Below, one piece after another: positions 3,171-39,538 of a stretch of DNA of 64,000 nucleotides. The DNA lies in NCBI GenBank assembly GCA_964347565.1, contig CAYFZD010000001.1, positions 3,019-67,018 on the forward strand, in the 5' to 3' direction. The notes beneath the pieces were generated by a model. That model was not told the DNA's origin. It ran no database searches and saw nothing but the letters and a program-made list of their open reading frames with translations. The position numbers and the translations under genes are program-made. How positions within the stretch are numbered: position 1 is the stretch's first letter; every line of letters starts with the position of its first letter. This DNA comes from an uncultured Pseudomonadales bacterium. GTDB lineage: Bacteria > Patescibacteriota > Microgenomatia > UBA1400 > UBA12108.

Positions 3171-4124
3171 ATGTCAAAAATTCTAATCACTGGTGGTGCC
3201 GGCTTCATTGGTAATCATCTGTGTGATCGCTTTCTAGCGGAAGGTCACGAAGTCATCTGTGTCGACAATTTCCTCTCCGGTTCTTCCGAGAATATCAAAC
3301 ATCTTGAGGGCAATCCCAATTTTACCTTGATCGAGCACGATGTTTGCCAGCCACTCACACAAAATCCGACTGGCTTAGACGCTATTTTCCATTTTGCCTG
3401 TCCAGCCTCCCCCAACCCTGCTAGTCCTGTGTCTTATCTCAACTTTCCGATAGAGACGCTGATGGTCACCACCCTGGGTTCTCAGCGGATGCTCGAGCTG
3501 GCTCACCAGAATCGTTGCCAAATAATCTTTGCTTCCACTAGCGAAGTCTATGGTGATCCTGCTGTGCACCCCCAGCCAGAGACTTACTGGGGACACGTCA
3601 ACCCCAACGGCCCTCGCTCTTGTTACGACGAAGGCAAAAGGGCCATGGAAGCCCTCGCCTTTGCCTACCATCGCCTGGGTCAAGCCCAGATCAAAGTCAT
3701 CCGCATCTTTAACACCTATGGCCCCAAGATGAGACTAGATGATGGTAGATTCACCATCAACTTGATCGATTGTTATCTGCACAACAAAGCCCTACCGATG
3801 TACGGGGATGGCTCTGCTACCCGTTCATTTTGCTACATCGACGATTTAGTTGAGGGGATCATGAAGATTTATCAGAGTGAAAAAGCCGTCGGCGAGGTTA
3901 TCAACCTCGGTAATCCTACAGAACTCACGATCACACAAGCAATCGAAATATTTGAAAATATTACTGGTAAAAAATTGTCCAAGGAGATGCGTGCGACCCT
4001 CACCGATGATCCTAAACGTCGCTGTCCAGACATTGGGAAAGCGAAAAAACTCCTAGATTGGGAACCAATGATAGATTTTGCGACTGGTATCAAGAAAACA
4101 CTCGAATCATACCAACATGCTTAA
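3171..4124 (+). CDS. uxs: UDP-glucuronate decarboxylase (UDP-xylose synthase)
   Basis: ILITGGAGFIGNHL plus the block YGDPAVHPQPETYWGHVNPNGPRSCYDEGKR, which is diagnostic for UXS/ArnA-decarboxylase type SDRs. ATG at 3171; the tracked ORF starts at TTG 3162. Confidence 0.85.
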   Translation: MSKILITGGAGFIGNHLCDRFLAEGHEVICVDNFLSGSSENIKHLEGNPNFTLIEHDVCQPLTQNPTGLDAIFHFACPASPNPASPVSYLNFPIETLMVTTLGSQRMLELAHQNRCQIIFASTSEVYGDPAVHPQPETYWGHVNPNGPRSCYDEGKRAMEALAFAYHRLGQAQIKVIRIFNTYGPKMRLDDGRFTINLIDCYLHNKALPMYGDGSATRSFCYIDDLVEGIMKIYQSEKAVGEVINLGNPTELTITQAIEIFENITGKKLSKEMRATLTDDPKRRCPDIGKAKKLLDWEPMIDFATGIKKTLESYQHA

Positions 4125-5292
4125 AATTGTCGTAGTCATTCCCACTTATAATGAATCAGGCAACGTCGCTCCAGTAACTTTGGCGCTAGACAAAGTTTTC
4201 CGGACTCTCAGAGATTATGATCCACATATTCTCTTCGTAGATGACAATTCTCCCGATGGCACCAGCCAGAAGATAGCACAGCTTATTGCTCGATATCCTT
4301 TTGTCCACATACTCAAGAACAAGCGTAAGGGTGGACTTGGCCATGCCTATAAAAAAGGTTTTACTTACGCCCTCGATAAACTCCACGCTGACATACTCTT
4401 CGAATTTGACGCGGATCTCCAGCACGACCCGCTCGTCATTCCCGACATGCTCAGAGCTATTGAAGATGGTGCTGACCTAGTGCTTGGCTCTCGTTACATC
4501 AGGGGAGGTGGCATTCCTTCCAAATGGCCCTGGTATCGAAAATTCCTCTCCGTCGTGGGCAACCTTTATATCAGGGTCATTATGGGTAACTTCCAGATTC
4601 ACGATTGGACTACCGGATACCGCGCCATTCGTGCTAAAGTAGTAGAGAGCCTCTTGCCACAAATGAACGGCACCTCCTTCACGGGATATGCCTGGCAAAT
4701 AGGTTTCTTGGTAAAAAGCCTCCAAGCAGGGGATAGAGTAACCGAAGTGCCTTTTGTTTTTACCGAACGCACAAGCGGTCACTCTAAGTTAGGCCCAGAA
4801 TATATTATTAACACCATGAGGTACATCATGAAAGTCAGGTTAAATCAAATCCTCCATAGTCGAATCCTGAAATTTGTCATGGTGGGAGGATTTGGTTCGC
4901 TTGTACAACTGACAGCTCTCCATTTTTATCGGTTATTCATCCAGACCAACTTAGGCCCGATTTCTCCCTATCAGATTGCACTGGTCTTGGCGATCGAGAC
5001 GGCCATCGTCAGCAACTTCACCTGGAGCAACCTCTGGACCTTCCGTGATCGCAAACTCAAACCAATCCAACTCCCTCTCAAATTCCTCCAGTTTAACTTA
5101 GCTTCTGGGGGTTCGCTCCTCCTCCAATTTATTATTGCTAGCCTAGGCGAGCGCTTCATCGGACTCTATACCATCTTTCAGATCTCCAAATTCTCTATCG
5201 ACACCGGCTTAGTCTATGCTGTAGTGGGGATTTTGATCGGTATGTTCTGGAATTTTTTCGCTTACACCCACCTAGTCTGGAAGAAAAAATAG
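4117..5292 (+). CDS. GT2 polyprenol-phosphate glycosyltransferase (DPM1/ArnC-like) fused to C-terminal GtrA-like 4-TM domain
   Basis: VVIPTYNESGN, FVDDNSPDGT and DADLQHDP motifs of Dpm1-type GT2. C-terminal 120 aa (ILKFVMVGGFGSLVQL...) has the GtrA-like topology. 8-nt overlap with uxs. Confidence 0.8.
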   Translation: MLKIVVVIPTYNESGNVAPVTLALDKVFRTLRDYDPHILFVDDNSPDGTSQKIAQLIARYPFVHILKNKRKGGLGHAYKKGFTYALDKLHADILFEFDADLQHDPLVIPDMLRAIEDGADLVLGSRYIRGGGIPSKWPWYRKFLSVVGNLYIRVIMGNFQIHDWTTGYRAIRAKVVESLLPQMNGTSFTGYAWQIGFLVKSLQAGDRVTEVPFVFTERTSGHSKLGPEYIINTMRYIMKVRLNQILHSRILKFVMVGGFGSLVQLTALHFYRLFIQTNLGPISPYQIALVLAIETAIVSNFTWSNLWTFRDRKLKPIQLPLKFLQFNLASGGSLLLQFIIASLGERFIGLYTIFQISKFSIDTGLVYAVVGILIGMFWNFFAYTHLVWKKK

Positions 5293-5293
5293 A

Positions 5294-6406
5294 CTACAGC
5301 AGCGCTCCCCAATTACTAATCGGTTGGATATTTCTAAGTACAAACTGCCAGCCCAGTAGATAAATAGGGATCAACATCAGCGCAATTCCCCACCAATACT
5401 TTCTCGGGATCCTCTCGATCAGTGGTGCGTATCCAAGTAGTGCTATTGGCGCAATCGGGAGGGCATATCGTGCTAAATCCCGGTGTGCCACAAATAGCAA
5501 AGTTGTCCCGTAGATTAGTCCCCATTTCTTGAGCATTGGCCAACGACCATTGACCATCGCTATCCCTACCCCGTAAAAGATGTATAGATAAATGATGTCC
5601 TCTCTCCACATATCGTTGATCCAGGTGGCCATATTCGAAAAAATCGAAAATGGCGGGAAAAATAAGTGCAGATTGTCACCAGAGTGAAAGTAGGCGAGAG
5701 GATCTCCATATCTCCAGCCGTAAAACCCAAATAACCCCACCAAAACAATCGGCATGAGTATGTAGGGAAGTAGGTCCTTGGGTCTACGCCACATACTCAA
5801 AAGATAAACACCAAAGAGTAAGATGCCTGGACTCCTAGTGAGCACCGCCAGTGCCCCAGCAACAGCACTAGGCCAGTATTTTTGTTTAATCGCCCAAGTT
5901 AGCGAGATGATCACAAGAAAAATAAATAGTGGTTCGTTGCTCCCGACTCCTCGGACTGAAAGCATGCGCGCAGGGAAAAACAGCCCGATCGTAGAAAGTA
6001 AAATAGCCAAATTTTTGTTTTTCAGGGTTGTGACAAAAAAGAAATATAACCCACCCGCCAACAGCAAATTCGACAAAATGATCGACAAAAGGAGTGCTTG
6101 TGGGGGTGTCAGAATGAAATCAAAAATCTTGATGAGACCTGCAAAAAGGGGGAAATGTGCGGCATAGTAAATTGGGTCGTTTCCCGTCAAAAATTGAGCG
6201 TTGATCGCTTCAATAGTTTTGGGGTTATATCCACTTTTTTCCACTACCAAGAAGTTTAATCCATCAAAATTCTGTACTACAGCCTCCATCCCTCGACGTG
6301 CAAAATCGATCCCCCAAAATTGACCTGTTTTGACCAAAAACGGTGCCCAGAAAACCATCAAGGAGAGACCTACGGCCATGAGTACGAGTAGCAAGTTACG
6401 CGCCAT
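5294..6406 (-). CDS. Polytopic membrane protein, PIG-V-like putative GT-C glycosyltransferase (paralog family A)
   Basis: About 9 predicted TM helices. Motif NFDGLNFL..EKSGY..AAHFPLFAGL is shared with 28.7-29.7k, 35431-36474 and 36489-37574. Confidence 0.55.
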   Translation of the reverse strand: MARNLLLVLMAVGLSLMVFWAPFLVKTGQFWGIDFARRGMEAVVQNFDGLNFLVVEKSGYNPKTIEAINAQFLTGNDPIYYAAHFPLFAGLIKIFDFILTPPQALLLSIILSNLLLAGGLYFFFVTTLKNKNLAILLSTIGLFFPARMLSVRGVGSNEPLFIFLVIISLTWAIKQKYWPSAVAGALAVLTRSPGILLFGVYLLSMWRRPKDLLPYILMPIVLVGLFGFYGWRYGDPLAYFHSGDNLHLFFPPFSIFSNMATWINDMWREDIIYLYIFYGVGIAMVNGRWPMLKKWGLIYGTTLLFVAHRDLARYALPIAPIALLGYAPLIERIPRKYWWGIALMLIPIYLLGWQFVLRNIQPISNWGALL

Positions 6407-6424
6407 ACCTATATACTACACGAT

Positions 6425-7135
6425 ATGCCAAAAAAACTCTCAAGCCTCTCCATTTTCATGCCTGCTTACAACGAGGAGGGCAATATCGCAGCTACGATCA
6501 TGGACGCGACGAAGGCAGCTAAGACTGTGGCAAACGATTATGAGATCATTGTGGTTAATGATGGTTCGCGTGATAAAACTGTCGAGATCGTCACTGGTTT
6601 ATCCCAGTTAGACCCCCATATCCGACTCATCAATCATTCTAAAAACCGGGGCTACGGTGCCGCGGTCAAAACTGGCCTTGGAGCCTGTCGCAAGAACTGG
6701 ATATTCTTTACGGACTCTGATGGACAGTTTCATTACGATGAGCTAGCCAAGTTTGTCGTCGCCACTGACTCAGCGGATTTGGTCATGGGCTATAGACGCA
6801 AACGGATGGATCCATTTCACCGTGTCTTTGTCGCTCAAGTCCTCCTCAAAATCTGGAATTTTGTCTTATTTGGCCTCACGGTTCGCGATGTCGACTGTGC
6901 CTACAAACTATTCTCTCGTAAACTCCTCCGCGCTATCAAACTCAAGACCGAGAGTGCCATTACAGTCTCAGAATTCATTATCAAGGCCAAGGCCGCCGGT
7001 TTCCGCATCACCCAGCTGCCAGTACAACACTACCCCAGGAGGTTTGGCGAACAAACAGGGGGGAATTGGCGAGTGATAATGCGTGCAGCCAGGGAGAGCT
7101 TTCGCATGTACAAAGAATTACACCCTCGCTCATGA
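6425..7135 (+). CDS. GT2 glycosyltransferase (polyprenol-phosphate sugar synthase type)
   Basis: IFMPAYNEEGNI, IIVVNDGSRDKT and FTDSDGQ (DxD) motifs. Confidence 0.8.
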   Translation: MPKKLSSLSIFMPAYNEEGNIAATIMDATKAAKTVANDYEIIVVNDGSRDKTVEIVTGLSQLDPHIRLINHSKNRGYGAAVKTGLGACRKNWIFFTDSDGQFHYDELAKFVVATDSADLVMGYRRKRMDPFHRVFVAQVLLKIWNFVLFGLTVRDVDCAYKLFSRKLLRAIKLKTESAITVSEFIIKAKAAGFRITQLPVQHYPRRFGEQTGGNWRVIMRAARESFRMYKELHPRS

Positions 7136-8646
7136 AGTTTATCCGTCAACATTTGCTGATCATACTTGTACTCCTCTTCGCCCTATTTTTACGGACATAT
7201 AATCTGAGTGCAACAATGACTTTTTTGGAAGATGAGGGGAGGGATCTCCTGGTCGTCCACCGCATGCTTGACACGTTTAGACCCGCGTTGATTGGCCCCC
7301 AGACCTCGACAGGAAACATGTATCTGGGGCCACTCTATTATTACTTGATTACTCCTGCCTTGTTTCTCGCTCAGATGAATCCGCTTGGACCTGTTATTTT
7401 TATTGCTTTAACTGGAGTCTTGACTGCTTGGCTATTGTATTACTTGGGCACCAAGTGGTTTGGTAAATCCGCGGGCATGCTCGCCGCCCTCATGTACGCA
7501 CTCCTACCACTCCCAGTGATTTTTACGCGCAATTCATGGAACCCCAATCTAGCGCCGCTTATCTCTCTGCTCATGCTCGCTTACCTCGTCAAAATTGTTC
7601 AGCATAAAATCTTTGTCAAAAAAGATTTTCTAATTCTGGGTTTATTAGCTGGTGCCCTCGTCCAGCTGCACTATATGGCTCTCCTGTTTCTCGTCGGGGT
7701 CGGACTTGCCCTCATCTACTACCTGCACAACTCTCTCCCGACTATCTTGCGGGGAGTCTGTGTCGCGCTCGTTGGTTTTATCATCACGCTCTCACCCTTT
7801 ATTCTTTTTGAGATTCGCAATGATTACGTCAATACCCACGCACTCACCCGCTTTGTGATGGCCAAAGAGGAACACAACATCCGCTACTCGCTCCCGCTGA
7901 CCTTGTGGGCGAGCAAAGTCGAGAGCACCTCCGTGCGCGTTTTCGCGAGCTTGTTTGGCCGTGATGCCCTCACGAGAGATCCCGCAAGAGTCACCATTAC
8001 CCTCATTGCCTCTCTCCTCCTGGTCATGACATTACTAGTCATCCGCAAAAAACATGACTCCCCCAGCCGGATTTATCGGGTGCTTTTTTTGACGTTCATC
8101 ATCCCTCTCGCCTTAACCGGCATTTACCAGGAAAATATTCATCTACACTATCTAGGTTTTTTCTTCCCTCTGATCTACCTACTCATCGCCAAGTCTCGCT
8201 TCGCCTGGATATTTTTCGTCGTGTGCCTCTGCTATGCCAGCCCGCAACTCCTTAGTTATTTACGCTCAGACGGTACTAACCAAGTCATCCGCGCTAAAGA
8301 AGTTATCGAGTATATCCTGCGCGACACGGCAGGGCGACCATACAATATTGTGAGTTCACGTAGTACCTCCTCTACCCCTTATCAATATTTCTCCGCCATC
8401 TCTAGCTTTCCCGCCACCACAGAGGCAGTGCCAGACGTTTATTTGATTTGCCAGGGGGCACCCTGCAGCGACGAAGACGTGAACACCCCCTTCTTCTTCA
8501 TCACTGGTCAGGCTCACCCCGCCATCCGAGCTTATCTGGGACACCCGCTCTCCAATTATTTTGAGGGTGAGCGGACGCTCCTAAGCAATGATCACGTCTC
8601 TCACGGCGCTTGGGTCGCCAAAATAAATGTTAAACTAGAGCCATGA
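7132..8646 (+). CDS. GT-C family membrane glycosyltransferase (ArnT/PMT-like)
   Basis: More than 10 TM helices. First periplasmic loop has TFLEDEGRDLLV (DE motif). ATGA overlap with upstream GT2. Confidence 0.7.
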   Translation: MKFIRQHLLIILVLLFALFLRTYNLSATMTFLEDEGRDLLVVHRMLDTFRPALIGPQTSTGNMYLGPLYYYLITPALFLAQMNPLGPVIFIALTGVLTAWLLYYLGTKWFGKSAGMLAALMYALLPLPVIFTRNSWNPNLAPLISLLMLAYLVKIVQHKIFVKKDFLILGLLAGALVQLHYMALLFLVGVGLALIYYLHNSLPTILRGVCVALVGFIITLSPFILFEIRNDYVNTHALTRFVMAKEEHNIRYSLPLTLWASKVESTSVRVFASLFGRDALTRDPARVTITLIASLLLVMTLLVIRKKHDSPSRIYRVLFLTFIIPLALTGIYQENIHLHYLGFFFPLIYLLIAKSRFAWIFFVVCLCYASPQLLSYLRSDGTNQVIRAKEVIEYILRDTAGRPYNIVSSRSTSSTPYQYFSAISSFPATTEAVPDVYLICQGAPCSDEDVNTPFFFITGQAHPAIRAYLGHPLSNYFEGERTLLSNDHVSHGAWVAKINVKLEP

Positions 8647-9398
8647 AACCCTTCGTTTCCGTCATTCTCCCCAATTACAACGAACTAGAGAATCTCAAAC
8701 GTGGGGTCTTGCTCTCGATTTATAAATACTTGAATGGTCAGAAATTCTCCTGGGAAGTGATCATCTCCGATGACGGCTCCACTGACGCGAGTATTAATTT
8801 TATCGAAAAGTTTATTAAAGTTCACCCAGGATTCAAATTCCTCAAGAACCCTCACGCCGGCAAGCCCTTTGCCCTTGCGAGCGCCCTCAAAGCGGCCCGA
8901 GGTGAGTATGTTCTATTTACCGACATGGATCAATCTACCCCTATCAACCAACTCGAGAAATTGATCCCCTATACCAAGGATGGTTTCAAAGTGGTCATCG
9001 GTTCTCGCGGGATTCGCCGACGTGACTCGAGCCTACTGCGTCAGCTGGCTTCCGTCATCTTCTTGCTGGCGAGGAAAATATTCCTCTTGCGCAACATCAA
9101 AGATACCCAGTGTGGTTTTAAACTGCTCCAAGCTGATTTAGCAAGAAATATCTTTTCGCGCATGCGACTATTCGGGAGATCCAGTCAATCTGTTGGATGG
9201 AAAGTCACGGCCTACGACGTCGAGATGCTCTTCCTCGCAGAGAAACTAGGTCAAGAAATCCAGGAAGTGAGGGTAGTATGGCAAGACGAGGATACAAGCT
9301 CAGGCAAAAAACGCAATTTCATCAAAGAAAGTGTCGAGATGTTCACCGAGATCTTGCGAGTGAGCGTGAATGACATGTTGGGCAAATACAATGTCTAA
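8643..9398 (+). CDS. GT2 glycosyltransferase (DPM1-like)
   Basis: VSVILPNYNELENL, VIISDDGSTDAS and FTDMDQS motifs. ATGA overlap with upstream gene. Confidence 0.8.
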   Translation: MKPFVSVILPNYNELENLKRGVLLSIYKYLNGQKFSWEVIISDDGSTDASINFIEKFIKVHPGFKFLKNPHAGKPFALASALKAARGEYVLFTDMDQSTPINQLEKLIPYTKDGFKVVIGSRGIRRRDSSLLRQLASVIFLLARKIFLLRNIKDTQCGFKLLQADLARNIFSRMRLFGRSSQSVGWKVTAYDVEMLFLAEKLGQEIQEVRVVWQDEDTSSGKKRNFIKESVEMFTEILRVSVNDMLGKYNV

Positions 9399-10515: not shown

Positions 10516-10522
10516 TGACTTT

Positions 10523-12022: not shown

Positions 12023-12025
12023 TAT

Positions 12026-14813: not shown

Positions 14814-14814
14814 T

Positions 14815-16284: not shown

Positions 16285-16307
16285 GCGTAGTCGAAGGAAA
16301 ATAAAAT

Positions 16308-21716: not shown

Positions 21717-21732
21717 TTCGAATTATCGTAGT
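21707..21732. promoter_or_regulatory. 26-bp near-palindromic operator-like site (copy 1): ACTACG-ttaATTCGAATtat-CGTAGT
   Basis: 24/26 self-complementary around a TTCGAA core. Spans the hydrolase stop codon and ends 9 nt upstream of the regulator ATG. 25/27 identical to copy 2 at 22187-22212. Confidence 0.45.
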
Positions 21733-21740
21733 ATAGATGT

Positions 21741-22184: not shown

Positions 22185-22186
22185 AT

Positions 22187-22212
22187 ACTACGATGATTCG
22201 AATTATCGTAGT
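22187..22212. promoter_or_regulatory. 26-bp near-palindromic operator-like site (copy 2): ACTACG-atgATTCGAATtat-CGTAGT
   Basis: 24/26 self-complementary. Starts 3 nt after the regulator stop and ends 12 nt upstream of the GATase ATG. Confidence 0.45.
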
Positions 22213-26947: not shown

Positions 26948-26961
26948 GGTAAAATCCTCCT

Positions 26962-27855: not shown

Positions 27856-27857
27856 CT

Positions 27858-32090: not shown

Positions 32091-32091
32091 T

Positions 32092-34422
32092 ATGCGAAAA
32101 TCATGGGCCTCACATTTACCTTGGCTCTTAATAATTACTGTTGTAGCTATCTTTCTCACCCGCAATCTTTGGGGTACGCGTGCCTGGATAGAAACGCACG
32201 ATGGGATCTTTCATTTGATCAGGCAAGACGCCTTTGTCGATTCCTTCCGTAGCGGCCATTTTCCAGTTCGCTGGGCTGGCTCGCTCGATAACGGCTTTGG
32301 TCTGCCAATCTTTAACTATATATACCCGGGTCCCTACTATCTGGGGACACCACTATCACTGCTGGGACTCAGTGCCAAATGGGTGATTAAGCTGGTCGAG
32401 ATCTCACTCTATCTCTTGGGAGGAATCGGGATCTACACGCTATTTGCCCGCCGCCACAAGCTCTATGCCACCCTCTGTGCACTGCTCTATCTGACGACAC
32501 CCTATTTGCTCCTCAATCTTTTTGTGCGAGGCGCCCTAGGCGAGTTTATGGCGATCTCACTGATACCTTGGGTGTTAGTCTCCCTCATGGATATGCGCTC
32601 TCGCCAAACACTCGCTTGGTACCACCCACTCCCTTACTTCCTCTTGTTTATCAGTCACAATTTTTTGAGTTTTCTCTTTCTCCCGATATACCTCGCCATC
32701 ATATTTTTAGATCGAACTGCTCTCAAGATCGTGATCAAGAGTCTGTTTCTCTCTCTCTTACTCTCAGCCTTTTTTATAGTTCCCATGGTTTTCGAGCGTG
32801 ACTTACTCTACTCGGTTTCCACCGGCAATTTTACCTATAATTTTGCCGATCACTTTGTCTACCCCATGCAGCTTATCTACTCAAAATGGGGGATTGGTCA
32901 CTCCTATGCAGGCACGGGCGACGGGTTCTCGTTTGGACTCGGATTTGCGAATTTAGCCGTACTTTTCACCTCGTTGATCACCCTTTATCTCCGTCGAAGT
33001 CGCGATCTCTTCACTTACACAGGCCTGACTCTAATCGTTATTTTTTTCTTACTCCCTCTATCGCTCCCTATCTGGAAGATGTTACACCCTCTCCAAATCA
33101 TTCAGTTTCCCTGGCGTCTCCTGTCACTCACCACCATTACTATCCCGCTACTATCATTCTTCCTCCTAATGACGTATCACAAGTCTCGCTACCTACCCGC
33201 CGTTGCCACTGGGCTAATTGTCTTTAATCTCTATTTTGCTTCTCTTTACTCCACTCCCGCGTATTTCCAGAACAACGATCAGCTCGCTAACCAGTTATAT
33301 GTTCACTCAGGACAAACTACCACCTCATCTCGCCTGGAGATGCTACCTCGTTGGTCGCCACTTGAAGCGAGATGGATGGGGGAAGAGAACATGCGCATCG
33401 ATCAAGGTTCTTCGCAGATAACTTCCTCTAGCTCCACAGCAAGCAACCTGTCCTTTACCGCAGATGCCAACATGGAAGGCGTTGTATATCGTATTCGTCG
33501 TAATTATTTCCCCTCTTGGGTCGTCCGTGACGAGACGGGGATTAGTTATGCACTCAAGCCCACAGACGATGGAGAAATCAATTTTACAGGTAGATCTGGC
33601 CTCCACACTTACTCGGCTTATGTCGGCAGTACGAGAATCGAACTTCTAGCCAACTGGCTCAGTTTATTTACTCTTATCTATTTACTTAGTATGGCCCTAC
33701 GTCCCAAATTCAAAGATTATCTCGATTCTCGTTTTACGGGTTGGGATATCTCAATTGCCCTCCGCTATCTACCCATAGTGGATGCGCTAAAAAAAATCGC
33801 ACGTCCAAGTGACAAAATCCTCGAAGTTGGTTCCGAAATCACCGGCATTACTCCCTACTATAAGCGCCTTATTACTGGTCTAGATCAAGGCTTTGATTAC
33901 AAGAGGAGCAACAAATACTTAACACCTGTCGAGGGTAGCGCGACGAGCATGCCGTTTAAAGATCGTTCGTTCGATTACGTTATTTCTGTTGATTGTCTCG
34001 AACATATTCCCCCCAAATTACGTGCCAAAGCCGTTAAAGAAATGTTTAGAGTAGCCAAGAAGCAAATTTATCTTACCTTTCCGGTAGGCTCTCACTCTCA
34101 GAATATTGATAAAAGACTAGATCAATATTTCTACGAAAGAAACGGAGAACATTTTACCTATCTCACTGAGCACGTCGATTACGGCCTACCCGGTTTCGAC
34201 TTTATTCCAAATCTAGTAGCCGAGCATGCTGATTGGCAATTAAAAGTCCATGGTAATACAAGCACCTGGCTCTGGGTTCTCCTGCTAAAAATGGGCTTCT
34301 CTAATGTTCCTTGGCAAACGAGTATTTACAGACGTTTGCTCTTACTCCTTCCGCTCCTCAAACACTTTAATTTTGCGCCATGCTATAGGCAGTTATATAT
34401 CATTACCAGGGTTAGCGTATGA
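32092..34422 (+). CDS. Fusion: HD-motif polytopic membrane domain (family C) + C-terminal class I SAM-dependent methyltransferase
   Basis: N-terminal ~560 aa are paralogous to 12026-13480. C-terminal ILEVGSEITGITPYY...FDYVISVDCLEHIPP matches the Methyltransf_11-type motifs I and post-I. The tracked ORF start at 32014 overlaps the upstream gene; the Met at 32092 immediately follows its stop. Confidence 0.65.
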   Translation: MRKSWASHLPWLLIITVVAIFLTRNLWGTRAWIETHDGIFHLIRQDAFVDSFRSGHFPVRWAGSLDNGFGLPIFNYIYPGPYYLGTPLSLLGLSAKWVIKLVEISLYLLGGIGIYTLFARRHKLYATLCALLYLTTPYLLLNLFVRGALGEFMAISLIPWVLVSLMDMRSRQTLAWYHPLPYFLLFISHNFLSFLFLPIYLAIIFLDRTALKIVIKSLFLSLLLSAFFIVPMVFERDLLYSVSTGNFTYNFADHFVYPMQLIYSKWGIGHSYAGTGDGFSFGLGFANLAVLFTSLITLYLRRSRDLFTYTGLTLIVIFFLLPLSLPIWKMLHPLQIIQFPWRLLSLTTITIPLLSFFLLMTYHKSRYLPAVATGLIVFNLYFASLYSTPAYFQNNDQLANQLYVHSGQTTTSSRLEMLPRWSPLEARWMGEENMRIDQGSSQITSSSSTASNLSFTADANMEGVVYRIRRNYFPSWVVRDETGISYALKPTDDGEINFTGRSGLHTYSAYVGSTRIELLANWLSLFTLIYLLSMALRPKFKDYLDSRFTGWDISIALRYLPIVDALKKIARPSDKILEVGSEITGITPYYKRLITGLDQGFDYKRSNKYLTPVEGSATSMPFKDRSFDYVISVDCLEHIPPKLRAKAVKEMFRVAKKQIYLTFPVGSHSQNIDKRLDQYFYERNGEHFTYLTEHVDYGLPGFDFIPNLVAEHADWQLKVHGNTSTWLWVLLLKMGFSNVPWQTSIYRRLLLLLPLLKHFNFAPCYRQLYIITRVSV

Positions 34423-35450
34423 AAATCGCCATTTGCACTAGCCCACTCAAAAACAGCAGTAAAACGCGTGGGGTCGGGGTCTACACGCGCGAGCTCGTGA
34501 ACGCTCTACGCACCAGCTTCCCCACAGACCAGTTTATCGAGACTACGGGCAATCCCTATCAAAGCGGGATTGACCTCGTGCACTACCCCTTCTTTGATCC
34601 CTATTTTTTGACCCTGCCCTGGCGTTATTCGCTCCCCACCCTCATCACAATCCACGACCTCATTCCCCTCAAATATCCCACTCATTTCCCCGCGGGATTA
34701 CGTGGGCGACTCAAATGGGAGGTCCAAAAGATGAGGGCCCGAGCATCTGCTGGGATCATCACCGACTCTCTTAGCTCCGCAACGGATATTCAAGAGATAT
34801 TAAAAATTAAAGAAAACCGTATCCACGTGATCCCCTTGGCGTCTGCTACCGCTCGGACTGCCATGTCTCTTGCTCCTAAAATAAAAAAACTCTACCATCT
34901 TCCCGACCGCTATATTCTCTACGTAGGTGACGTCAACTGGAACAAAAATATCCCAGGACTAATCGACGCTTTCGCCAAGTTAGACAACTCCTCGACTCAT
35001 TTAGTGTTGGTGGGTAAAGTTTTTGCCGATAAGCCAGATATCCCAGAATTCAAAGTGGTGATGGAAGCCATAAAAAAATCTGGCAAATCAGAACTAATTC
35101 ATCTCATTGGCTACGTCCCTAGTCACCACCTCTCTGGGATTTACCGGGAAGCCACGCTCTACTGCCAGCCCTCCTGGGACGAGGGGTTCGGCCTCCCGAT
35201 CCTCGAGGCTATGAAAGCCGGCTGCCCGGTGGTAAGTAGTAATCGCGGCAGTCTGCCCGAGGTGGGAGGGGAGGCTGCACTTTATTTTAACCCTAGCTCA
35301 AATGAGCTCCCAGGAGTTTTACAATCACTCCTCTCCTCTCCCGCCAAGCGGGATTCACTCAAAGAGGCGGGTCTCCTCCAAGTCAAACAATTTACTTGGG
35401 ACAAAACTGCCAAACTGACCAGGGAGATTTATGCCCAAATGGTTGGTTGA
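34419..35450 (+). CDS. GT4 glycosyltransferase
   Basis: GFGLPILEAMKAGCPVVSSNRGSLPEVGGEAA signature. ATGA overlap with upstream gene. Confidence 0.85.
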   Translation: MKIAICTSPLKNSSKTRGVGVYTRELVNALRTSFPTDQFIETTGNPYQSGIDLVHYPFFDPYFLTLPWRYSLPTLITIHDLIPLKYPTHFPAGLRGRLKWEVQKMRARASAGIITDSLSSATDIQEILKIKENRIHVIPLASATARTAMSLAPKIKKLYHLPDRYILYVGDVNWNKNIPGLIDAFAKLDNSSTHLVLVGKVFADKPDIPEFKVVMEAIKKSGKSELIHLIGYVPSHHLSGIYREATLYCQPSWDEGFGLPILEAMKAGCPVVSSNRGSLPEVGGEAALYFNPSSNELPGVLQSLLSSPAKRDSLKEAGLLQVKQFTWDKTAKLTREIYAQMVG

Positions 35451-36474
35451 TATTTTCTCATCGACCATTAACCATTGGCCATTAGCCATTAGTTTTCCAT
35501 ACTACGATACTGATCTTGCCCCCTTTTATTCTCGCTTCTGGGCCACTTTTGCGCATTTTGACGGGATTCATTACTTGCGTATCGCACAACATGGATACGC
35601 CGACTGGGGTAGCCAGGCCTTTTTCCCCCTCTACCCGCTCCTAGTCCATCTACTCTCGCCCTTGTCTCCCTCGCCCCTAGCGGCAGGACTCTTTATTTCC
35701 TGGGCCTCGCTAATTTTTGCCATTGTAGGATTGCGTCGCCTTTTCCCTACTAGACCTCATTTGTTTTGGCTTGTGCTCGCTTTCCCCACGGCCTTTTTCT
35801 TTTTTACTGTTTATACCGAGTCTCTCTTTTTCGCGCTCTCTATTTGGTTTTTTGTCTTTTTATCACGTCAAAAATGGTGGCTCGCCGCTCTCCTCGCTGG
35901 TCTCGCTTCGGCCACCCGCCTGGTCGGTGTTTTCCTCGCCCTTAGTCTCTTGATCGAACTCTTCCGTCACCCATTATCCATGATCCATCGATCATTTATT
36001 GTCCTTTTCTCTGTCTCTGGACTTCTTGCCTACATGTATTTCCTATACCAGACAACCGGTGATCCACTCCTGTTCTTTCACGTCCAACCTATCTTTGGTG
36101 GAGGCAGGAGTGGGGGAGAGCTGATTCTGCTGCCCCAAGTCATATATCGCTACGCCAAAATTTTACTCACGACTAGCTACGACACTTTTGTTTTTTGGCG
36201 CTCATTTCTCGAACTTGGCTTCCTTACTTGGGCACTGTCATCTATTATTAAAAAGTTTAAAACCATACCTCTCTCTGCCAACTTCTATCTCATTCTCTCA
36301 GTTATCTTGCCCACGCTCTCTGGCTCCCTCTCATCCCTCCCTCGTTATCTCCTCGTCCTGACCCCTTGGCTATTGCCAGAGAGTAAGAGGGGGATACTGC
36401 TATACCTCGCCCTCGCCATCCCCCTGTTTGTACTTCTGATCTTACAGTTCGCAAGGGGTATATTTGTGAGCTAG
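35431..36474 (+). CDS. PIG-V-like polytopic membrane protein (family A paralog)
   Basis: HFDGIHYLRIAQHGYADWGSQAFFPLYPLLVHLLS plus about 9 TM helices. Confidence 0.6.
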   Translation: MPKWLVDIFSSTINHWPLAISFPYYDTDLAPFYSRFWATFAHFDGIHYLRIAQHGYADWGSQAFFPLYPLLVHLLSPLSPSPLAAGLFISWASLIFAIVGLRRLFPTRPHLFWLVLAFPTAFFFFTVYTESLFFALSIWFFVFLSRQKWWLAALLAGLASATRLVGVFLALSLLIELFRHPLSMIHRSFIVLFSVSGLLAYMYFLYQTTGDPLLFFHVQPIFGGGRSGGELILLPQVIYRYAKILLTTSYDTFVFWRSFLELGFLTWALSSIIKKFKTIPLSANFYLILSVILPTLSGSLSSLPRYLLVLTPWLLPESKRGILLYLALAIPLFVLLILQFARGIFVS

Positions 36475-36488
36475 GATATACTAGTTAT

Positions 36489-37574
36489 ATGAAAAAAGAT
36501 TTGTTGATCATCACGCTGCTATTCACATTTATTTCCTTGGTATTTTTTCTCTTCGCCAAAACTACGAGGGGAGGACTAGACAGTGTCTACAAAGCCTGGG
36601 ATGGGCCCAGCTATGTGATCGTCGCAGAGAGCCTCTATGTCCCCTCAGACGCTGTCTTGTACAACAGTATTCAGTCACCAGATATCCGCCCAGATTTTAC
36701 TTTCCTCCCCGCGCATTTCCCCCTTTACCCCCTCCTCATCCGGACATTCTCCCCCATTGGCTACTATCAAGCCATGCTCTTCGTCTCGCTTCTTTTTAGT
36801 CTCGCGACTCTGTTGGTCTTCTACCTGCTCGCTCGTCAACTGGGTCTCTCTGCCCCACTGCTGTTGACCTTGCCGATGATCCTCTTGCCACCCCGCTGGT
36901 TTATCATCGCCCATACCGGTAGCTCAGAACCCATTTTTTTCTTTTTTGTTTTGACCAGCCTCTTGTTTTATTTTCGTCGCCTCCCCTGGGCATCCGCGCT
37001 CGCGGCGAGCCTGGCTATGCTGACGCGTCCCCAAGGAGCTCTCCTGGGGCTCGGCTATCTCTTTATTGCTCTCATTCACCTCTACCGCTCTAGAGATCTA
37101 CGGCTCATCTTAAAGCGATACACCCAATACCTCCTCATCCCGCTCACCCTCCTCGCTGTATTTTGGTTCTATCAGCGCCAGACGGGAGATTTTTGGGCTT
37201 TCTTCTCAGCGATCTCGATTTTTCACCATTTTAGACTCAGCCTCTTCCCGACTTTTAATTTTGGGGCGCCTAATATCGAGACCTTTTGGCTTGAGGCCAA
37301 TGTGCTCTACTATTTCCTCTATCTTGCAGCCATCTTACGTTTGTATCACTCTGGTAAGTGGCAATTGGGGACCATCGGTCTCGTCTTTTATCTACCTCTT
37401 TTATTCCTCCAACACACCGACATCAGTCGCTACGCACTCCCCCTGATGCCGCTGGTCTTTATCGCTTTTGCGCAAGGTATGGCGAGCATGCCATTCAACC
37501 TCGCCACCATCCTCAGCATCCCGTCGATCTTCCTCTACACCACCAACTTTATTCTCTATAATCGCGCGCCCTGA
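36489..37574 (+). CDS. PIG-V-like polytopic membrane protein (family A paralog, divergent)
   Basis: AWDGPSYVIVAESLY...AHFPLYPLLIRTFSP plus about 9 TM helices. Confidence 0.55.
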   Translation: MKKDLLIITLLFTFISLVFFLFAKTTRGGLDSVYKAWDGPSYVIVAESLYVPSDAVLYNSIQSPDIRPDFTFLPAHFPLYPLLIRTFSPIGYYQAMLFVSLLFSLATLLVFYLLARQLGLSAPLLLTLPMILLPPRWFIIAHTGSSEPIFFFFVLTSLLFYFRRLPWASALAASLAMLTRPQGALLGLGYLFIALIHLYRSRDLRLILKRYTQYLLIPLTLLAVFWFYQRQTGDFWAFFSAISIFHHFRLSLFPTFNFGAPNIETFWLEANVLYYFLYLAAILRLYHSGKWQLGTIGLVFYLPLLFLQHTDISRYALPLMPLVFIAFAQGMASMPFNLATILSIPSIFLYTTNFILYNRAP

Positions 37575-37596
37575 TTTTGCTCTATAATACATATCT

Positions 37597-38364
37597 ATGT
37601 CACTCTCTCATTACGCCGAACTAGTGCGCGAGCTCTCCATCCGCGAGATCAAGGCCCGTTACAAGCAATCTGTCCTGGGTTATGCCTGGGTCATTTTGAA
37701 TCCATTTTTCCAGATGCTCGTGATGTCTTTTGTCTTCTCCAAAATCCTGCGATTCCCCACCCTCGGCGTACCCTATGCCATCTTTCTCTACGCTGGGCTC
37801 TTGCCCTGGAATTTGTTTGCTAACTCCCTAGTCAGTAGTACCAACGCTCTCGTCAGTAACGCCTCTCTACTCACGAAGATTTACTTCCCGAGGGAAATCT
37901 TCATCATTAGTACGACCCTCGCCAAGATCGTGGACTTTTTCCTCGCTTCCACAGTCTTCATTCTCTTTATGATTTTTTATCAACTCCCTATTACCTGGAA
38001 TATCCTCTGGTTCATCCCGATTTTCGCCATCCAGCAGCTCTTTACCTATGGTCTCTCTCTCATCCTCGCCTCGCTCAATCTTTTCTACCGAGACATCCAG
38101 TATGTGCTGACCCTGATCGTCATGGTCTGGATGTATTTAACTCCCGTTATCTACCCTACCGAGATCTTCCCCGAGCAATATAAGTGGATCTTCCAGCTCA
38201 ATCCCATGGCCGTGATCATCAACGCGTACAGGCAGACCATCCTGGGAGGGGGTATGCCCAATCTCACGAGTCTGGGGATCGGTCTCTTCGTTTCCCTCCT
38301 TGTCACCTTCGTTGGCATCAAACTATTTAAAAAATTAGAAGGGGTCTTTGCGGATGTAGTGTAG
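37597..38364 (+). CDS. wzm: ABC-2 type polysaccharide/teichoic-acid exporter permease (Wzm/TagG-like)
   Basis: LSIREIKARYKQSVLGYAWVILNPFFQML is the canonical ABC-2 N-terminus. 6 TM helices. Confidence 0.8.
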   Translation: MSLSHYAELVRELSIREIKARYKQSVLGYAWVILNPFFQMLVMSFVFSKILRFPTLGVPYAIFLYAGLLPWNLFANSLVSSTNALVSNASLLTKIYFPREIFIISTTLAKIVDFFLASTVFILFMIFYQLPITWNILWFIPIFAIQQLFTYGLSLILASLNLFYRDIQYVLTLIVMVWMYLTPVIYPTEIFPEQYKWIFQLNPMAVIINAYRQTILGGGMPNLTSLGIGLFVSLLVTFVGIKLFKKLEGVFADVV

Positions 38365-38397
38365 TCGCTTTGCGACATGGCTAATGATTAATGACTT

Positions 38398-38784
38398 ATG
38401 ACTAATATCGACAAAAATAAATATCTTAAGTTCGAAGAACTTCCCGTATGGAAGATTAGTTATCAACTAGCCTTGAATATTTACCGTGCTACAATGAATT
38501 TTCCAAAGGCAGAAGTATTTGGATTAACATCACAGATCAGACGATCCTCTTCTTCTGTTGGGGCAAATATTGCTGAAGGATTTTATAAAAATACTACTCC
38601 AGATCTAGTTCACTTCCTGTACATCGCACGAGGATCTGCAGGAGAAACACTACATCACCTTATGATGTCATACGATTTGAAATATATATCTGACGAGGAT
38701 TTTGTTTCTCTCAAAGACCAAGTAGAAAATACGCTTAGACAACTTTCCGCTTGGATAAAATCATTGGAAAATAAGCATCAATAG
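38398..38784 (+). CDS. Four-helix-bundle protein (23S rRNA intervening-sequence protein family)
   Basis: 128 aa. LPVWKISYQLALNIYRATMNFPK...GANIAEGF...YIARGSAGE pattern of the TIGR02436-type family. AT-rich relative to its neighbours. Inserted between wzm and wzt. Confidence 0.65.
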   Translation: MTNIDKNKYLKFEELPVWKISYQLALNIYRATMNFPKAEVFGLTSQIRRSSSSVGANIAEGFYKNTTPDLVHFLYIARGSAGETLHHLMMSYDLKYISDEDFVSLKDQVENTLRQLSAWIKSLENKHQ

Positions 38785-38785
38785 T

Positions 38786-39538
38786 ATGACCATAAATTTA
38801 GCCATCAGCCATCAGTCATCATCCATTAAAATAACTAACGTAAGTAAGTTATTTTTCAAGCAGGAGCAGAAAACGTTCAAAGAATTCTTGCCCGCCATCT
38901 TCACGGGCAAGAAAACAAGGGAGTGGTTCTGGGCACTCCAGGATATCAATCTGGAAATCAGGGCAGGGGAGACGCTCGGGATCATGGGACCCAATGGGAG
39001 CGGCAAGTCCACCCTCCTCAAGCTGATCGCTGGCGTCTCCCAGCCCACCAAAGGGACTATCACCGCGTTGGGTAGGGTAGCCCCCCTCATCGAGCTCGCG
39101 GCCGGGTTCCACCCCGAGCTCACCGGGCGCGAGAACGTTTATCTCAATGGCATCATCTTGGGTATGTCGCGCGCAGAGGTTGCGGACAAATTTAAGACCA
39201 TCGTCGATTTTGCCGAGCTTTGGGACTTTATCGACTCGCCGGTCAAGCACTACTCCTCTGGTATGTACCTGCGCCTCGCCTTTTCCGTGGCCATCCATAC
39301 TGACCCAGATATTCTCTTACTCGACGAGATCTTGGCGGTAGGGGATGAGCAGTTCCAGGCCAAATGCTTTGCCAAACTACGATCTCTCCAAAAACAAGGG
39401 AAAACCATCATCTACGTCTCACATGACAGCCAATCGGTCCGTGATTTTTGCACTAGGGCTATTCTGATTACCAAATCTAGGATAATCAAGGACGCCACCC
39501 CAAAAGTTATTTGTGATCTCTACTCTGCGCAGTCATAA
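38786..39538 (+). CDS. wzt: ABC exporter ATP-binding protein (Wzt/TagH-like, short form)
   Basis: Walker A GPNGSGKSTLLK, signature YSSGMYLRLAF and Walker B ILLLDEILAVGD. No C-terminal carbohydrate-binding extension. Confidence 0.85.
   Translation: MTINLAISHQSSSIKITNVSKLFFKQEQKTFKEFLPAIFTGKKTREWFWALQDINLEIRAGETLGIMGPNGSGKSTLLKLIAGVSQPTKGTITALGRVAPLIELAAGFHPELTGRENVYLNGIILGMSRAEVADKFKTIVDFAELWDFIDSPVKHYSSGMYLRLAFSVAIHTDPDILLLDEILAVGDEQFQAKCFAKLRSLQKQGKTIIYVSHDSQSVRDFCTRAILITKSRIIKDATPKVICDLYSAQS

Follow-up and report, generated by a model that had tools for sequence, protein, structure and literature searches.

A conserved, probably multi-promoter gene cluster with 14 candidate GT-C glycosyltransferases in an uncultured bacterium of the Microgenomates class

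A 64,000-nucleotide stretch of DNA from an uncultured bacterium (GenBank assembly GCA_964347565.1, contig CAYFZD010000001.1, positions 3,019 to 67,018) contains a co-directional, tightly packed, probably multi-promoter gene cluster that is likely the conserved core of a locus for biosynthesis of a cell-envelope glycoconjugate. The whole stretch is referred to here as the window, positions are counted from its first nucleotide, and genes are named by their lower coordinate. The cluster encodes 14 candidate membrane transferases of the GT-C type together with nucleotide-sugar enzymes, cytoplasmic glycosyltransferases, candidate polyprenyl-phosphate-sugar synthases, a Wzx-type flippase and a Wzm/Wzt exporter. 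An earlier note made from the sequence alone had described positions 4117-39538 as a 35-kb, translationally coupled glycosylation super-operon in which a glycan is elaborated stepwise outside the cytoplasm from polyprenyl-phosphate sugar donors. Family matches bear out its description of a glycan-assembly locus rich in GT-C transferases, with no unexpected transporters, and the stepwise extracytoplasmic elaboration fits the location of synthase genes immediately upstream of GT-C genes. The proposal of one transcription unit fared less well and is considered below.

Organization of the cluster

A six-frame list of open reading frames (ORFs) of at least 100 amino acids gives 32 tiling ORFs between 4078/4117 and 39538, of which 31 are on the plus strand and one (5294-6406) is on the minus strand, as the earlier note had it. 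A junction table, built with ATG starts chosen at overlaps, contains all ten of the ATGA-type 4-nt stop/start overlaps reported previously (7132/7135, 8643/8646, 17924/17927, 20991/20994, 22799/22802, 23821/23824, 25080/25083, 25601/25604, 31317/31320 and 34419/34422). Seven more junctions overlap by 8, 8, 8, 14, 14, 20 and 41 nt, in agreement with the range of 8-41 nt given for the others, which brings the overlaps to 17. The spaced junctions comprise five of 1-3 nt and nine of 7-39 nt, and no spacer within the plus-strand run exceeds 39 nt. Independent choice of strand is a poor null model for such a run; better evidence that the arrangement is not random is the recurrence of gene order and orientation, with the minus-strand exception and the 41-nt overlap, in independently assembled genomes of other species.

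The start of the cluster at 4117 proved to be an arbitrary boundary. The co-directional run begins at or before base 10, with five plus-strand genes upstream of 4117 that reach the window edge. The G+C content is 0.46-0.51 over 4-38 kb and falls to 0.39-0.45 beyond 40 kb. Pfam scans of all 58 window proteins point to glycan biosynthesis across the whole window, and scans of the 64 kb for tRNA genes and Rfam families gave no match. The run encodes 17 polytopic membrane proteins (the 14 GT-C candidates, Wzx, Wzm and a GT2-GtrA fusion), where about 14 had been estimated. Instead of the at least 11 GT2 domains claimed there are ten: nine exceed the Pfam threshold (4117, 6425, 8643, two in 16308, 17924, 26962, 27858 and 31317), and the one in 20230 was added by paralogy. 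The two GT4 proteins (22799 and 34419), Wzx (14815), Wzm (37597) and Wzt (38786) of the earlier count were all confirmed by Pfam. Genes in the run that are not evidently for glycan assembly encode a hydrolase (20991), a TrpR-like protein (21741), a class-I glutamine amidotransferase (GATase; 22224), a 174-amino acid protein (25080) and a four-helix-bundle/23S rRNA intervening-sequence protein (38398).

Candidate GT-C membrane transferases

All 14 GT-C candidates have 6-11 hydrophobic helices in Kyte-Doolittle scans and carry a DE/DD/ED or single-Asp motif directly after the first transmembrane helix (TM1). PMT/ArnT-like DE, DD or ED motifs lie just after TM1 in 7132, 10523, 13467, 18810 and 29713, and 25601 has WDQ, so that five or six such loops are found, close to the at least six claimed earlier. 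The remaining candidates have a single conserved Asp in the post-TM1 loop, and within the aligned families the Asp after TM1 is invariant (D318, D38 and D25). Pfam gathering scores are reached by eight candidates (four PMT_2, two PTPS_related, one GT87 and one Mannosyl_trans2), and the set as a whole covers at least five families: PMT_2, PTPS_related, GT87/MptA_B, PIG-V-like and a short PMT-like family without an assignment. The earlier note had suggested profile searches to see if the membrane ORFs hit transporters instead; only the expected Wzx and Wzm matched transporter families. Paralogy within the set is taken from an all-against-all phmmer comparison of the window proteins.

The PMT_2 members are 7132-8646 (+; 29.8 bits, cutoff 26.1; ED motif after TM1), which is ATGA-coupled to 6425; 10523-12022 (+; 35.9 bits; DE motif after TM1); 18810-20243 (+; 39.8 bits; DWDE motif), which overlaps the preceding gene by 41 nt, an overlap identical in the related locus L088 (related loci and genomes are given here by L numbers); and 29713-31320 (+; 57.3 bits; WDE motif), the top-scoring member of the cluster. 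The L005 orthologue of 29713 additionally has PF02366 (PMT). A divergent PMT_2 paralogue, 25601-26947 (+; phmmer E 2e-11 to 7132; WDQ motif), has eight to nine hydrophobic helices, and its orthologues in L005 and L007 are weak PMT_2 matches. A probable GT-C transferase, 13467-14813 (+; DD motif after TM1), matches PMT_2 below the cutoff (E 0.0011) and aligns in hhalign with the family of 36489 (84.5% probability, E 6.9e-6).

PTPS_related is represented by 12026-13480 (+; 40.3 bits, cutoff 26.4) and by its paralogue (2.4e-50) 32092-34422 (+), in which a PTPS_related GT-C (30.6 bits) is fused to a C-terminal S-adenosylmethionine methyltransferase (Methyltransf_11, 37.9 bits). The former also gives a weak match to GT-C_AftD that falls below the cutoff (E 0.0015; 17 bits, cutoff 26). 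The latter corresponds to two genes in L007, whereas L009 (99% query coverage) and L010 (92%) have the fusion. Protein 9391-10515 (+) belongs to the MptA_B family, PF26314 being recorded on an identical protein, and 23821-25083 (+) belongs to GT87 (30.4 bits, cutoff 25). The short PMT-like family (~360 amino acids), which has no Pfam assignment and a predicted GT-C fold, includes 36489-37574 (+) and its paralogue 5294-6406 (-; E 1.1e-30), the sole minus-strand gene, whose product has an NFDG motif after TM1.

A protein of unusual domain structure is 27858-29720 (+), a fusion of an N-terminal cytoplasmic GT2 domain (61.7 bits) to a C-terminal GT-C of the PIG-V/Mannosyl_trans2 type (47.8 bits). 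About 50 full-length orthologues are 44-81% identical to it, and the motif NFDGEHY is invariant among them; when 1.84 billion proteins were searched, only three of the best 150 hits were full-length representatives of 50%-identity clusters. Outgroup genomes encode the PIG-V-like protein alone, without the GT2 half. The solved relatives of the GT2 half are heparosan synthase and TarS. A role for that half as a lipid-sugar synthase feeding its own GT-C was considered and rejected, since these relatives are not of the DPMS, ArnC or GtrB type. A stand-alone paralogue of the C-terminal half, the PIG-V-like GT-C 35431-36474 (+; phmmer E 7.4e-38 to 27858), has the motif HFDGIHYLRIAQHGY in common with it.

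AlphaFold 2 models of 36489 and 9391, made from alignments of 47 and 45 homologues, are all-helical bundles with predicted local distance difference test scores of 94.3 and 93.1, and the 36489 model has a GT-C fold. Neither the profiles of these two families nor the sequences of 29713 and 22799 found a meaningful match when searched against PDB sequences, and the fold had to be compared instead; KtrB entries matched at E 0.02, which is weak, and were rejected as chance hits.

Nucleotide-sugar enzymes and candidate donor synthases

The upstream part of the cluster encodes enzymes for activated sugars. The window start cuts a UDP-glucose/GDP-mannose dehydrogenase, of which the C-terminal part remains (10-636, +; UDPG_MGDP_dh 85.6 bits, UDPG_MGDP_dh_C 83.3 bits) and whose full-length orthologue occupies the same position in L089. 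It is followed by an SDR-type nucleoside diphosphate (NDP)-sugar epimerase/dehydratase (633-1574, +; GDP_Man_Dehyd 241.6 bits, Epimerase 191.3 bits), for which no NCBIfam equivalog attains its cutoff, and by GDP-mannose 4,6-dehydratase, Gmd (1579-2544, +; TIGR01472 459.1 bits, cutoff 415). A 206-amino acid protein with an N-terminal hydrophobic helix at residues 7-25 and no Pfam or NCBIfam match (2549-3169, +) precedes another SDR-type NDP-sugar epimerase/dehydratase/reductase (3171-4124, +; GDP_Man_Dehyd 160.5 bits, Epimerase 159.6 bits), for which the NCBIfam scan gave no specificity.

Three GT2 proteins are candidate polyprenyl-phosphate-sugar synthases by homology. The first (4117-5292, +) resembles polyprenyl-phosphate mannose synthases (Glycos_transf_2 91.1 bits), carries a C-terminal GtrA/DPMS four-helix membrane domain (GtrA_DPMS_TM 58.7 bits) and aligns over its full length with Pyrococcus furiosus DPMS (5MLZ, E 2.2e-49). 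The second (6425-7135, +; GT2 104 bits) is an ArnC/GtrB-like catalytic domain without a membrane anchor, and its closest solved structures are ArnC (9.5e-18) and GtrB sll0501 (2.4e-14). The third (8643-9398, +; GT2 81.5 bits) is DPMS/ArnC/GtrB-like, the closest solved structures being DPMS (6.5e-11), ArnC (3e-10) and GtrB (5e-9). Each of these genes adjoins a GT-C gene: 6425 overlaps 7132 by an ATGA junction, 8643 overlaps 9391 by 8 nt, and 4117 abuts 5294 on the opposite strand. This adjacency is retained in L088 and L089, and from it we infer that polyprenyl-phosphate-linked sugars would be the donors of the GT-Cs. The only GtrA-type domain in the run is the one fused to 4117; a stand-alone GtrA gene is absent from the window, and Wzx is present.

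Host lineage and conservation of gene order

By the homology of its proteins, the host is a bacterium of the candidate phyla radiation (CPR, or Patescibacteria) and of the Microgenomates class. Homologues of 27858, 9391 and 36489 come from metagenome-assembled genomes (MAGs) named Microgenomates group, Roizmanbacteria, Collierbacteria, Daviesbacteria, Woesebacteria and Ca. Microgenomatus, so the guess of a CPR origin in the earlier note was right. Many related MAGs (L010, L013, L014, L016, L028 and others) are titled 'uncultured Gammaproteobacteria/Pseudomonadales bacterium' despite their Microgenomates-type cluster. These titles appear to be placeholders or wrong taxonomy and are treated here as placeholders; in other records this protein family bears the names Microgenomates, Daviesbacteria or Woesebacteria.

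Gene tables of related contigs and a tblastn matrix reveal the complete order, with the UDP-sugar dehydrogenase at one end and wzt at the other, in MAGs of other species whose proteins are 50-80% identical; one of these carries it on a contig of 897 kb (GCA_020724785.1). The conserved order runs from the dehydrogenase through the SDR enzymes, GT2-GtrA and the minus-strand GT-C to GT2, PMT_2, GT2, MptA_B, PMT_2, PTPS_related, GT-C and Wzx. It continues with the double GT2, GT2, PMT_2, the GT2-like protein, the TrpR-like protein (in those genomes that have it), GT4, GT87, a small protein and GT-C, and closes with GT2, GT2-PIG-V, PMT_2, GT2, PTPS_related (with or without the methyltransferase), GT4, PIG-V-like, GT-C, Wzm and Wzt. 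The position of the 5294 GT-C gene on the minus strand is kept in L088 and L089. In 41 loci of at least 18 kb from more distant members of the Microgenomates class, the ~21 kb surrounding the gene for the PIG-V-like protein contain a median of five GT-C-like ORFs. Judged from these loci, multi-GT-C clusters occur throughout the class, the largest of those compared being the one in this clade.

The earlier note did not recognise the gene order as that of a described system. No published account of it was found, and full-text searches of the literature on Microgenomates, Patescibacteria or CPR glycan transferases gave no description of this cluster; the order is not unique, though, being typical of a Microgenomates lineage. 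The only related item found in the literature is a gene set in Saccharibacteria resembling that for phosphatidylinositol mannosides (PMC6031116).

Predicted promoters and translation

Consensus promoter and terminator scans of 3-41 kb were uninformative, with counts equal to the shuffled expectation, and a promoter signal emerged only from analysis of position relative to the ATG. At seven of the 11 spaced starts, a TANNNT box starts 12-14 nt before the ATG and ends 6-8 nt before it. A -10 hexamer that ends 6-8 nt before the start codon is the signature of leaderless mRNA established for Actinobacteria and Deinococcus. Of 82 spaced starts from the window and 11 related loci, 28% have a TANNNT that begins at -12 and 10% have one that begins at -13, against ~3-4% at other positions and 5% at tight junctions. 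The binomial probability of the 7/11 count is ~8e-5, which is indicative only since orthologous junctions are not independent. More weight falls on the retention of the boxes at orthologous junctions.

Two of the boxes lie in the 18-nt divergent spacer (6407-6424), which is near-identical in L089: TATACT on the plus strand (6412-6417, before ATG 6425) and, overlapping it on the minus strand, TAGTAT (6413-6418, before the minus-strand gene start at 6406). This spacer is too short for 5' untranslated regions, and transcripts in both directions would therefore be leaderless. Downstream, TATAAT at 10511-10516 lies 6 nt before ATG 10523 and is TATAAT in all three genomes compared (window, L088 and L089). 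TAGTAT at 21729-21734 lies 6 nt before ATG 21741. At 26950-26955, TAAAAT is 6 nt before ATG 26962 and has TTGGTA 17 nt upstream, coinciding with a promoter scan hit at 26927-26955; at this junction 11 of the 12 genomes compared, the window included, have TAnAAT with its spacing to the ATG unchanged, while the flanks diverge. TATACT at 36477-36482, 6 nt before ATG 36489, is TATACT or CATAAT in five of six genomes, and TATAAT at 37583-37588, 8 nt before the ATG of wzm (37597), is found in all four, the window again being counted in both cases. A similar box also lies upstream of 62805 (-), outside the run, which makes the pattern a window-wide one.

Shine-Dalgarno cores are found upstream of 12 of 58 genes, compared with 13% at random positions, and the only spaced start with a Shine-Dalgarno-like AAGGA is 16308. 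Because these cores are near background, stop/start overlap is probably the main route by which downstream cistrons are translated. Terminator-like sites occur at chance level, inside genes, and none lies in a spacer; read-through and nested transcripts are therefore likely, and the units would not be independent. The region is probably, as predicted from its sequence, a multi-promoter cluster with read-through, and units are predicted to start at or before base 10 and at 6406 (-), 6425, 10523, 21741, ~22224, 26962, 36489 and 37597. To judge from this pattern, transcription and translation without leaders may be widespread in this Microgenomates lineage; full-text searches of the CPR literature found no paper reporting it.

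A candidate TrpR-like regulator between palindromes

Midway through the cluster, 21741-22184 (+) encodes a TrpR-like (PF01371) helix-turn-helix protein (Trp_repressor 33.7 bits, cutoff 27) that is a candidate regulator of the cluster. The gene is bracketed by two palindromes, both centred on ATTCGAAT. The first, TACTACGTTAATTCGAATTATCGTAGTA (21706-21733), is near-perfect and 28 nt long, and its right arm contains the TAGTAT box at 21729-21734. The second, TACTACGATGATTCGAATTATCGTAGT (22186-22212), starts 2 nt past the trpR-like stop codon and ends 11 nt before ATG 22224. The TrpR-like gene is at the same position in six related genomes (52-79% identity) and absent from L003. Palindromes likewise bracket the orthologous gene in L005, L007, L010, L013 and L016, with coordinates of ~1193-1222 and ~1668-1695 in L005 and of ~1210-1236 and ~1684-1710 in L007. 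Those at the position of the second copy are perfect in L005 and L007, and in the relatives this copy lies directly 5' of the GT4 gene. In six genomes the palindromes are 26-28 nt long with a conserved core, and their arms vary between lineages yet remain palindromic. The whole module is missing from the genome with the 897-kb contig, and by its distribution it is a clade-level addition. The palindromes are candidate operators, through which the TrpR-like gene would be autoregulated and the right-hand block controlled.

Proposed pathway and alternative explanations

The preferred reading is that the cluster directs assembly of an envelope glycoconjugate along the following lines. The UDP-sugar dehydrogenase, Gmd and three SDR enzymes would supply GDP-mannose-derived 6-deoxyhexose and precursors of the UDP-uronate type. 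Soluble or peripheral GT2 and GT4 enzymes would build a lipid-linked backbone or oligosaccharide at the cytoplasmic face, to be transferred to the outer face by the Wzm/Wzt ABC-2 exporter, the Wzx flippase or both. Meanwhile 4117, 6425 and 8643, each directly adjoining a GT-C gene, would load sugars onto polyprenyl phosphate, and the 14 GT-Cs would use such lipid-phosphate sugars to add residues and branches outside the membrane. The product may be modified by the methyltransferase domain and, in this lineage, also by the hydrolase and the amidotransferase. Several conserved internal promoters, with the -10 box 6-8 nt before the ATG, would yield leaderless mRNAs, within which stop/start overlaps instead of Shine-Dalgarno sites would serve translation, and expression of the right half is probably controlled by the TrpR-like protein, through the palindromes that precede its gene and the block downstream. 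This scheme is based on family and fold assignments, synteny, conservation of promoter boxes and the palindromes; the identities of the sugars, the sequence of reactions, the kind of acceptor (a wall polysaccharide, a lipoglycan or a protein), the structure of the transcripts and the link between regulator and operators are inferred.

A number of points weigh against this scheme. No initiating phosphoglycosyltransferase (Bac_transf or MraY-like Glycos_transf_4) and no Wzy polymerase (Wzy_C), O-antigen ligase or Wzz matched among the 58 window proteins, and no LCP transferase was found within the 64 kb. The window thus defines neither the lipid-linked primer nor the final acceptor, and the gene for the initiating enzyme may lie in another part of the genome. 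In 4117 the GtrA_DPMS_TM domain may serve as a membrane anchor alone and not as a flippase, and 6425 and 8643, which have no membrane helices, may be plain NDP-sugar GT2 enzymes. Among the GT-Cs, 13467 is the weakest assignment and is only probable, 35431 apparently lacks the first helix of its relatives, and the predicted outer-face location of the Asp loops is deduced from the GT-C fold. On the regulatory side, the internal promoters are predictions from sequence, the box at 10511-10516 overlaps the stop codon of the upstream gene, and the palindromes possibly act as RNA hairpins. The second window copy can fold at -13.3 kcal/mol and the downstream copies can form AU-rich hairpins of -11 to -17 kcal/mol, in each case with no U tract.

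Alternatively, the region could hold at least two co-located but independent pathways, one Wzx-dependent and one dependent on the ABC transporter, along with separate three-component decoration modules. Both Wzx and Wzm/Wzt are encoded, there are three different donor synthases, and the predicted promoters split the region into modules such as the GT2 and GT-C pairs of 6425-10515 and the block of 26962-36474. Species at 50-80% identity nevertheless have these modules side by side and in unchanged order, and the rhamnose-rich cell wall polysaccharide (Rha-CWPS) systems of lactococci and streptococci use an ABC exporter, Wzx and GT-Cs for one product (PMC9574508). On balance a set of separate pathways seems rather unlikely, although it is the strongest of the competing explanations.

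The GT-Cs could instead be mainly PMT-like protein O-glycosyltransferases that decorate surface proteins, such as pili or an S-layer, with Wzx-flipped oligosaccharides. Six to seven of them belong to PMT_2, one L005 orthologue (of 29713) has PF02366, and neither a ligase nor an LCP enzyme was found in the window. Wzx itself matches the NCBIfam model for an O-glycosylation flippase at E 8.5e-43, yet its score of 147 bits is far below the cutoff of 720. PMT_2 includes lipid and glycan transferases of the ArnT type, and glycolipids or glycans are the substrates of the MptA_B, GT87 and PIG-V-type families. In addition, the presence of a Wzm/Wzt exporter and of ten GT2 domains typifies polymer synthesis. 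None of the window proteins matched PF02366, MIR or PMT_4TMC at E values up to 0.01, and on these three families the likeness to protein O-mannosylation (GT39 PMT) drawn in the earlier note fails as a claim of membership. A system given over mainly to protein glycosylation is accordingly improbable.

Still less probable is a single 35-kb polycistronic, translationally coupled super-operon read from one upstream promoter. The co-direction of 31 of 32 genes, the 17 overlaps, spacers of at most 39 nt in the plus-strand run, the conserved gene order and the chance-level number of terminator-like sites, with none in spacers, are all in its favor. However, a conserved minus-strand gene with an 18-nt divergent spacer interrupts the run, three lineage-specific genes (20991, 22224 and 38398) are inserted exactly at spaced junctions, and a regulator gene lies in mid-cluster between conserved palindromes. 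The earlier note had named internal promoters as evidence against one transcription unit, and conserved -10-like boxes at the leaderless distance are what is found at seven of the 11 spaced starts. The conserved predicted promoters, the divergent spacer and the palindrome-bracketed regulator leave the single-transcript reading unsupported. A chimeric or collapsed metagenomic contig can be set aside almost entirely: the DNA comes from a 134-kb contig of a metagenome assembly and has abundant paralogues, but the same order is found in independent NCBI, JGI, ENA and Logan assemblies, including the 897-kb contig, and the paralogues have diverged (the closest pair, at phmmer 1e-146, is 45% identical) with no long exact repeats.

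Other genes of the cluster and its right flank

The Wzx/MOP-family flippase (14815-16284, +; Polysacc_synt_3 213 bits) also resembles the NCBIfam MOP flippase (E 3.8e-50), a match that, like the one to the O-glycosylation flippase, is below the cutoff. The remaining GT2 proteins are a double-GT2 glycosyltransferase (16308-17927, +; 120.2 bits over two stretches); 17924-18850 (+; GT2 44.4, Glyco_tranf_2_3 43.9 bits); 26962-27855 (+; GT2 62.3, Glyco_tranf_2_3 57.9 bits); 31317-32090 (+; 75 bits); and the GT2-like 20230-20994 (+), which scores 20.4 bits against a cutoff of 23.3 and is a paralogue of 16308 and 31317 at ~1e-23. The GT4 proteins are 22799-23824 (+; Glycos_transf_1 67.9 bits) and 34419-35450 (+; 99 bits), the latter having an MshA-type GT4 as its best solved relative (2.1e-20). 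The exporter consists of the ABC-2 type permease Wzm (37597-38364, +; ABC2_membrane 69.5 bits) and the ATPase Wzt (38786-39538, +; ABC_tran 86 bits), which is 250 amino acids long and has no C-terminal glycan-binding domain. The 174-amino acid protein (25080-25604, +) has a C-terminal membrane helix and no family match, and is conserved at the same position in eight loci at 33-54% identity, its orthologues being placed between GT87 and PMT-like genes.

The three lineage-specific insertions are of different kinds. An alpha/beta hydrolase (20991-21716, +; Abhydrolase_1 56.2 bits) has a counterpart among the compared relatives in L010 only. The class-I glutamine amidotransferase (22224-22802, +; GATase 79.7 bits), for which no orthologue was found across the compared loci, is an insertion of the window lineage between the second palindrome and the GT4 gene, which in relatives directly follows the palindrome. 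The four-helix-bundle/23S rRNA intervening-sequence protein (38398-38784, +; 23S_rRNA_IVP 123.6 bits, TIGR02436 119.2 bits) occupies the spacer between wzm and wzt, which in L005 is an empty 123-nt gap between the adjacent pair; this insertion resembles a small mobile or selfish element.

Synteny with L005 ends after wzt. The region from 39507 to 64000 is glycan-related, has mixed strands and a G+C content of 0.39-0.45 against 0.47-0.51, and is probably a strain-variable glycan module. Its products include a pyruvyl transferase, several methyltransferases (among them one for sugar C-methylation), a 757-amino acid GT4+GT2 fusion, a UDP-GlcNAc 2-epimerase, a DegT aminotransferase, a nucleotidyltransferase and a 628-amino acid SDR+GFO/IDH fusion. 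Two polytopic paralogues of 508 amino acids (49030-50556, +, and 52282-53808, -), which are 45% identical to each other and weakly similar to DUF2079, lie inverted around SDR and GT2 genes and may be two more GT-C-like enzymes. Farther along are a 586-amino acid protein with about eight hydrophobic helices (56896-58656, -) and a 219-amino acid protein (58647-59306, -), neither of which has a Pfam or NCBIfam match or a paralogue in the window.

Significance for Microgenomates biology

The CPR, or Patescibacteria, is a large and almost wholly uncultured group with minimal genomes whose members are presumed to be attached to other cells and whose surface chemistry is essentially unknown. A conserved core of ~40 kb with 14 candidate lipid-sugar-dependent transferases points to an elaborate surface glycoconjugate that would be important to the biology of these bacteria. 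Tentatively, and with a good deal of doubt, one may suppose that Microgenomates-class CPR bacteria, with genomes of ~1 Mb, build a complex envelope glycopolymer largely outside the cell, similar to lipoarabinomannan (LAM) and arabinogalactan (AG) or to Rha-CWPS. In such bacteria an assembly line of at least 14 GT-Cs would be encoded in one conserved block with leaderless internal promoters and a TrpR-like repressor, 27858 would be bifunctional (a GT-A site for nucleotide sugar in the cytoplasm and a GT-C site for lipid-linked sugar outside), and the polymer would be a main determinant of the surface and hence of attachment to the host. GT-C genes in such number are, to our knowledge, not found in any characterised bacterial locus. 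Conserved targets for further work are provided by the two families without a Pfam assignment, the rare GT2-GT-C fusion and the GT-C-methyltransferase fusion. The calling of genes and operons in these genomes is affected by the leaderless pattern, by the rarity of Shine-Dalgarno sites and by the module of TrpR-like gene and palindromes.

Comparison with known systems

The best analogues of the cluster are the three-component and Rha-CWPS systems and the mycobacterial LAM and AG pathways. Three- and four-component systems (GtrA/GtrB/GtrC, ArnC/ArnT, CsdA/CsdB/CflA and GacI/J/K/L; PMC11127046, PMC9574508) share with it the adjacency of synthase and GT-C genes, a GtrA-type membrane domain, a Wzx-type flippase and GT-Cs with a conserved Asp after TM1. 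They differ in that each module has a single GT-C and a genome usually contains one to three of them, whereas here 14 GT-Cs of at least five families are encoded in one block with only three candidate synthases. Moreover, synthase and GtrA-like domain form one protein here, an arrangement shared with archaeal DPMS, and two of the synthase candidates are without membrane helices.

The Rha-CWPS loci of lactococci, streptococci and enterococci (PMC9574508) are single clusters of 20-25 kb for dual-chain assembly in a monoderm envelope. As proposed here, they combine an ABC-2 exporter for a backbone made in the cytoplasm, Wzx for a lipid-linked oligosaccharide and GT-Cs that polymerise or graft outside. 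In Lactococcus the GT-C WpsI substitutes for a Wzy polymerase (PMC9574508), and by analogy a GT-C could replace Wzy in this cluster. Unlike the Rha-CWPS loci, the window has no rml genes or rhamnosyltransferase signature and would be supplied with a Gmd-based 6-deoxyhexose instead, and no LCP transferase or initiating enzyme was found in it. The cluster also has three to five times as many GT-Cs, GT2-GT-C and GT-C-methyltransferase fusions, a leaderless promoter architecture and a TrpR-like regulator.

ABC-dependent O-antigen loci, such as those of Escherichia coli O9a and Klebsiella O2a, likewise have a Wzm/Wzt pair (into which 38398 is inserted here), cytoplasmic polymerisation by GT2 and GT4 enzymes and a methyltransferase domain that could cap chains, and the short Wzt without a glycan-binding domain resembles that of the Klebsiella O2a type. 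In contrast to the present cluster, those loci are 6-10 kb long, have no GT-C or one, and belong to diderm hosts with a WaaL ligase; a monoderm envelope is presumed for the CPR host.

The earlier note had likened the cluster to mycobacterial lipomannan (LM), LAM and AG synthesis, which stands as an analogy but not as membership. In mycobacteria and corynebacteria (PimE, MptA/B/C, Emb, Aft, Ppm1), many outer-face GT-Cs use polyprenyl-phosphate sugars, and a GT2-built backbone is exported by an ABC-2 transporter (the galactan exporter of the Wzm/Wzt type). The MptA_B member 9391, the GT87 member 23821 and the DPMS-like 4117 correspond at the level of family, not orthology. The Emb, AftA and AftB arabinosyltransferase, UbiA and DprE families had no match in the 58 window proteins, AftD-N matched only below threshold, and the window contains no genes for synthesis of decaprenyl-phosphoryl arabinose and no identified PimA-type start, so that the Emb/Aft and arabinose-donor hallmarks of the pathway are absent. 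Mycobacterial LM, LAM and AG genes are scattered over a 4.4-Mb genome, whereas here the genes form one block in a genome of probably ~1 Mb. The enzymology of the cluster thus follows known principles and employs known families, extending existing paradigms without overturning them; points of interest are the number and diversity of GT-Cs in one conserved block, the setting in an uncultured bacterium with a minimal genome, the two fusions and the leaderless, TrpR-linked architecture.

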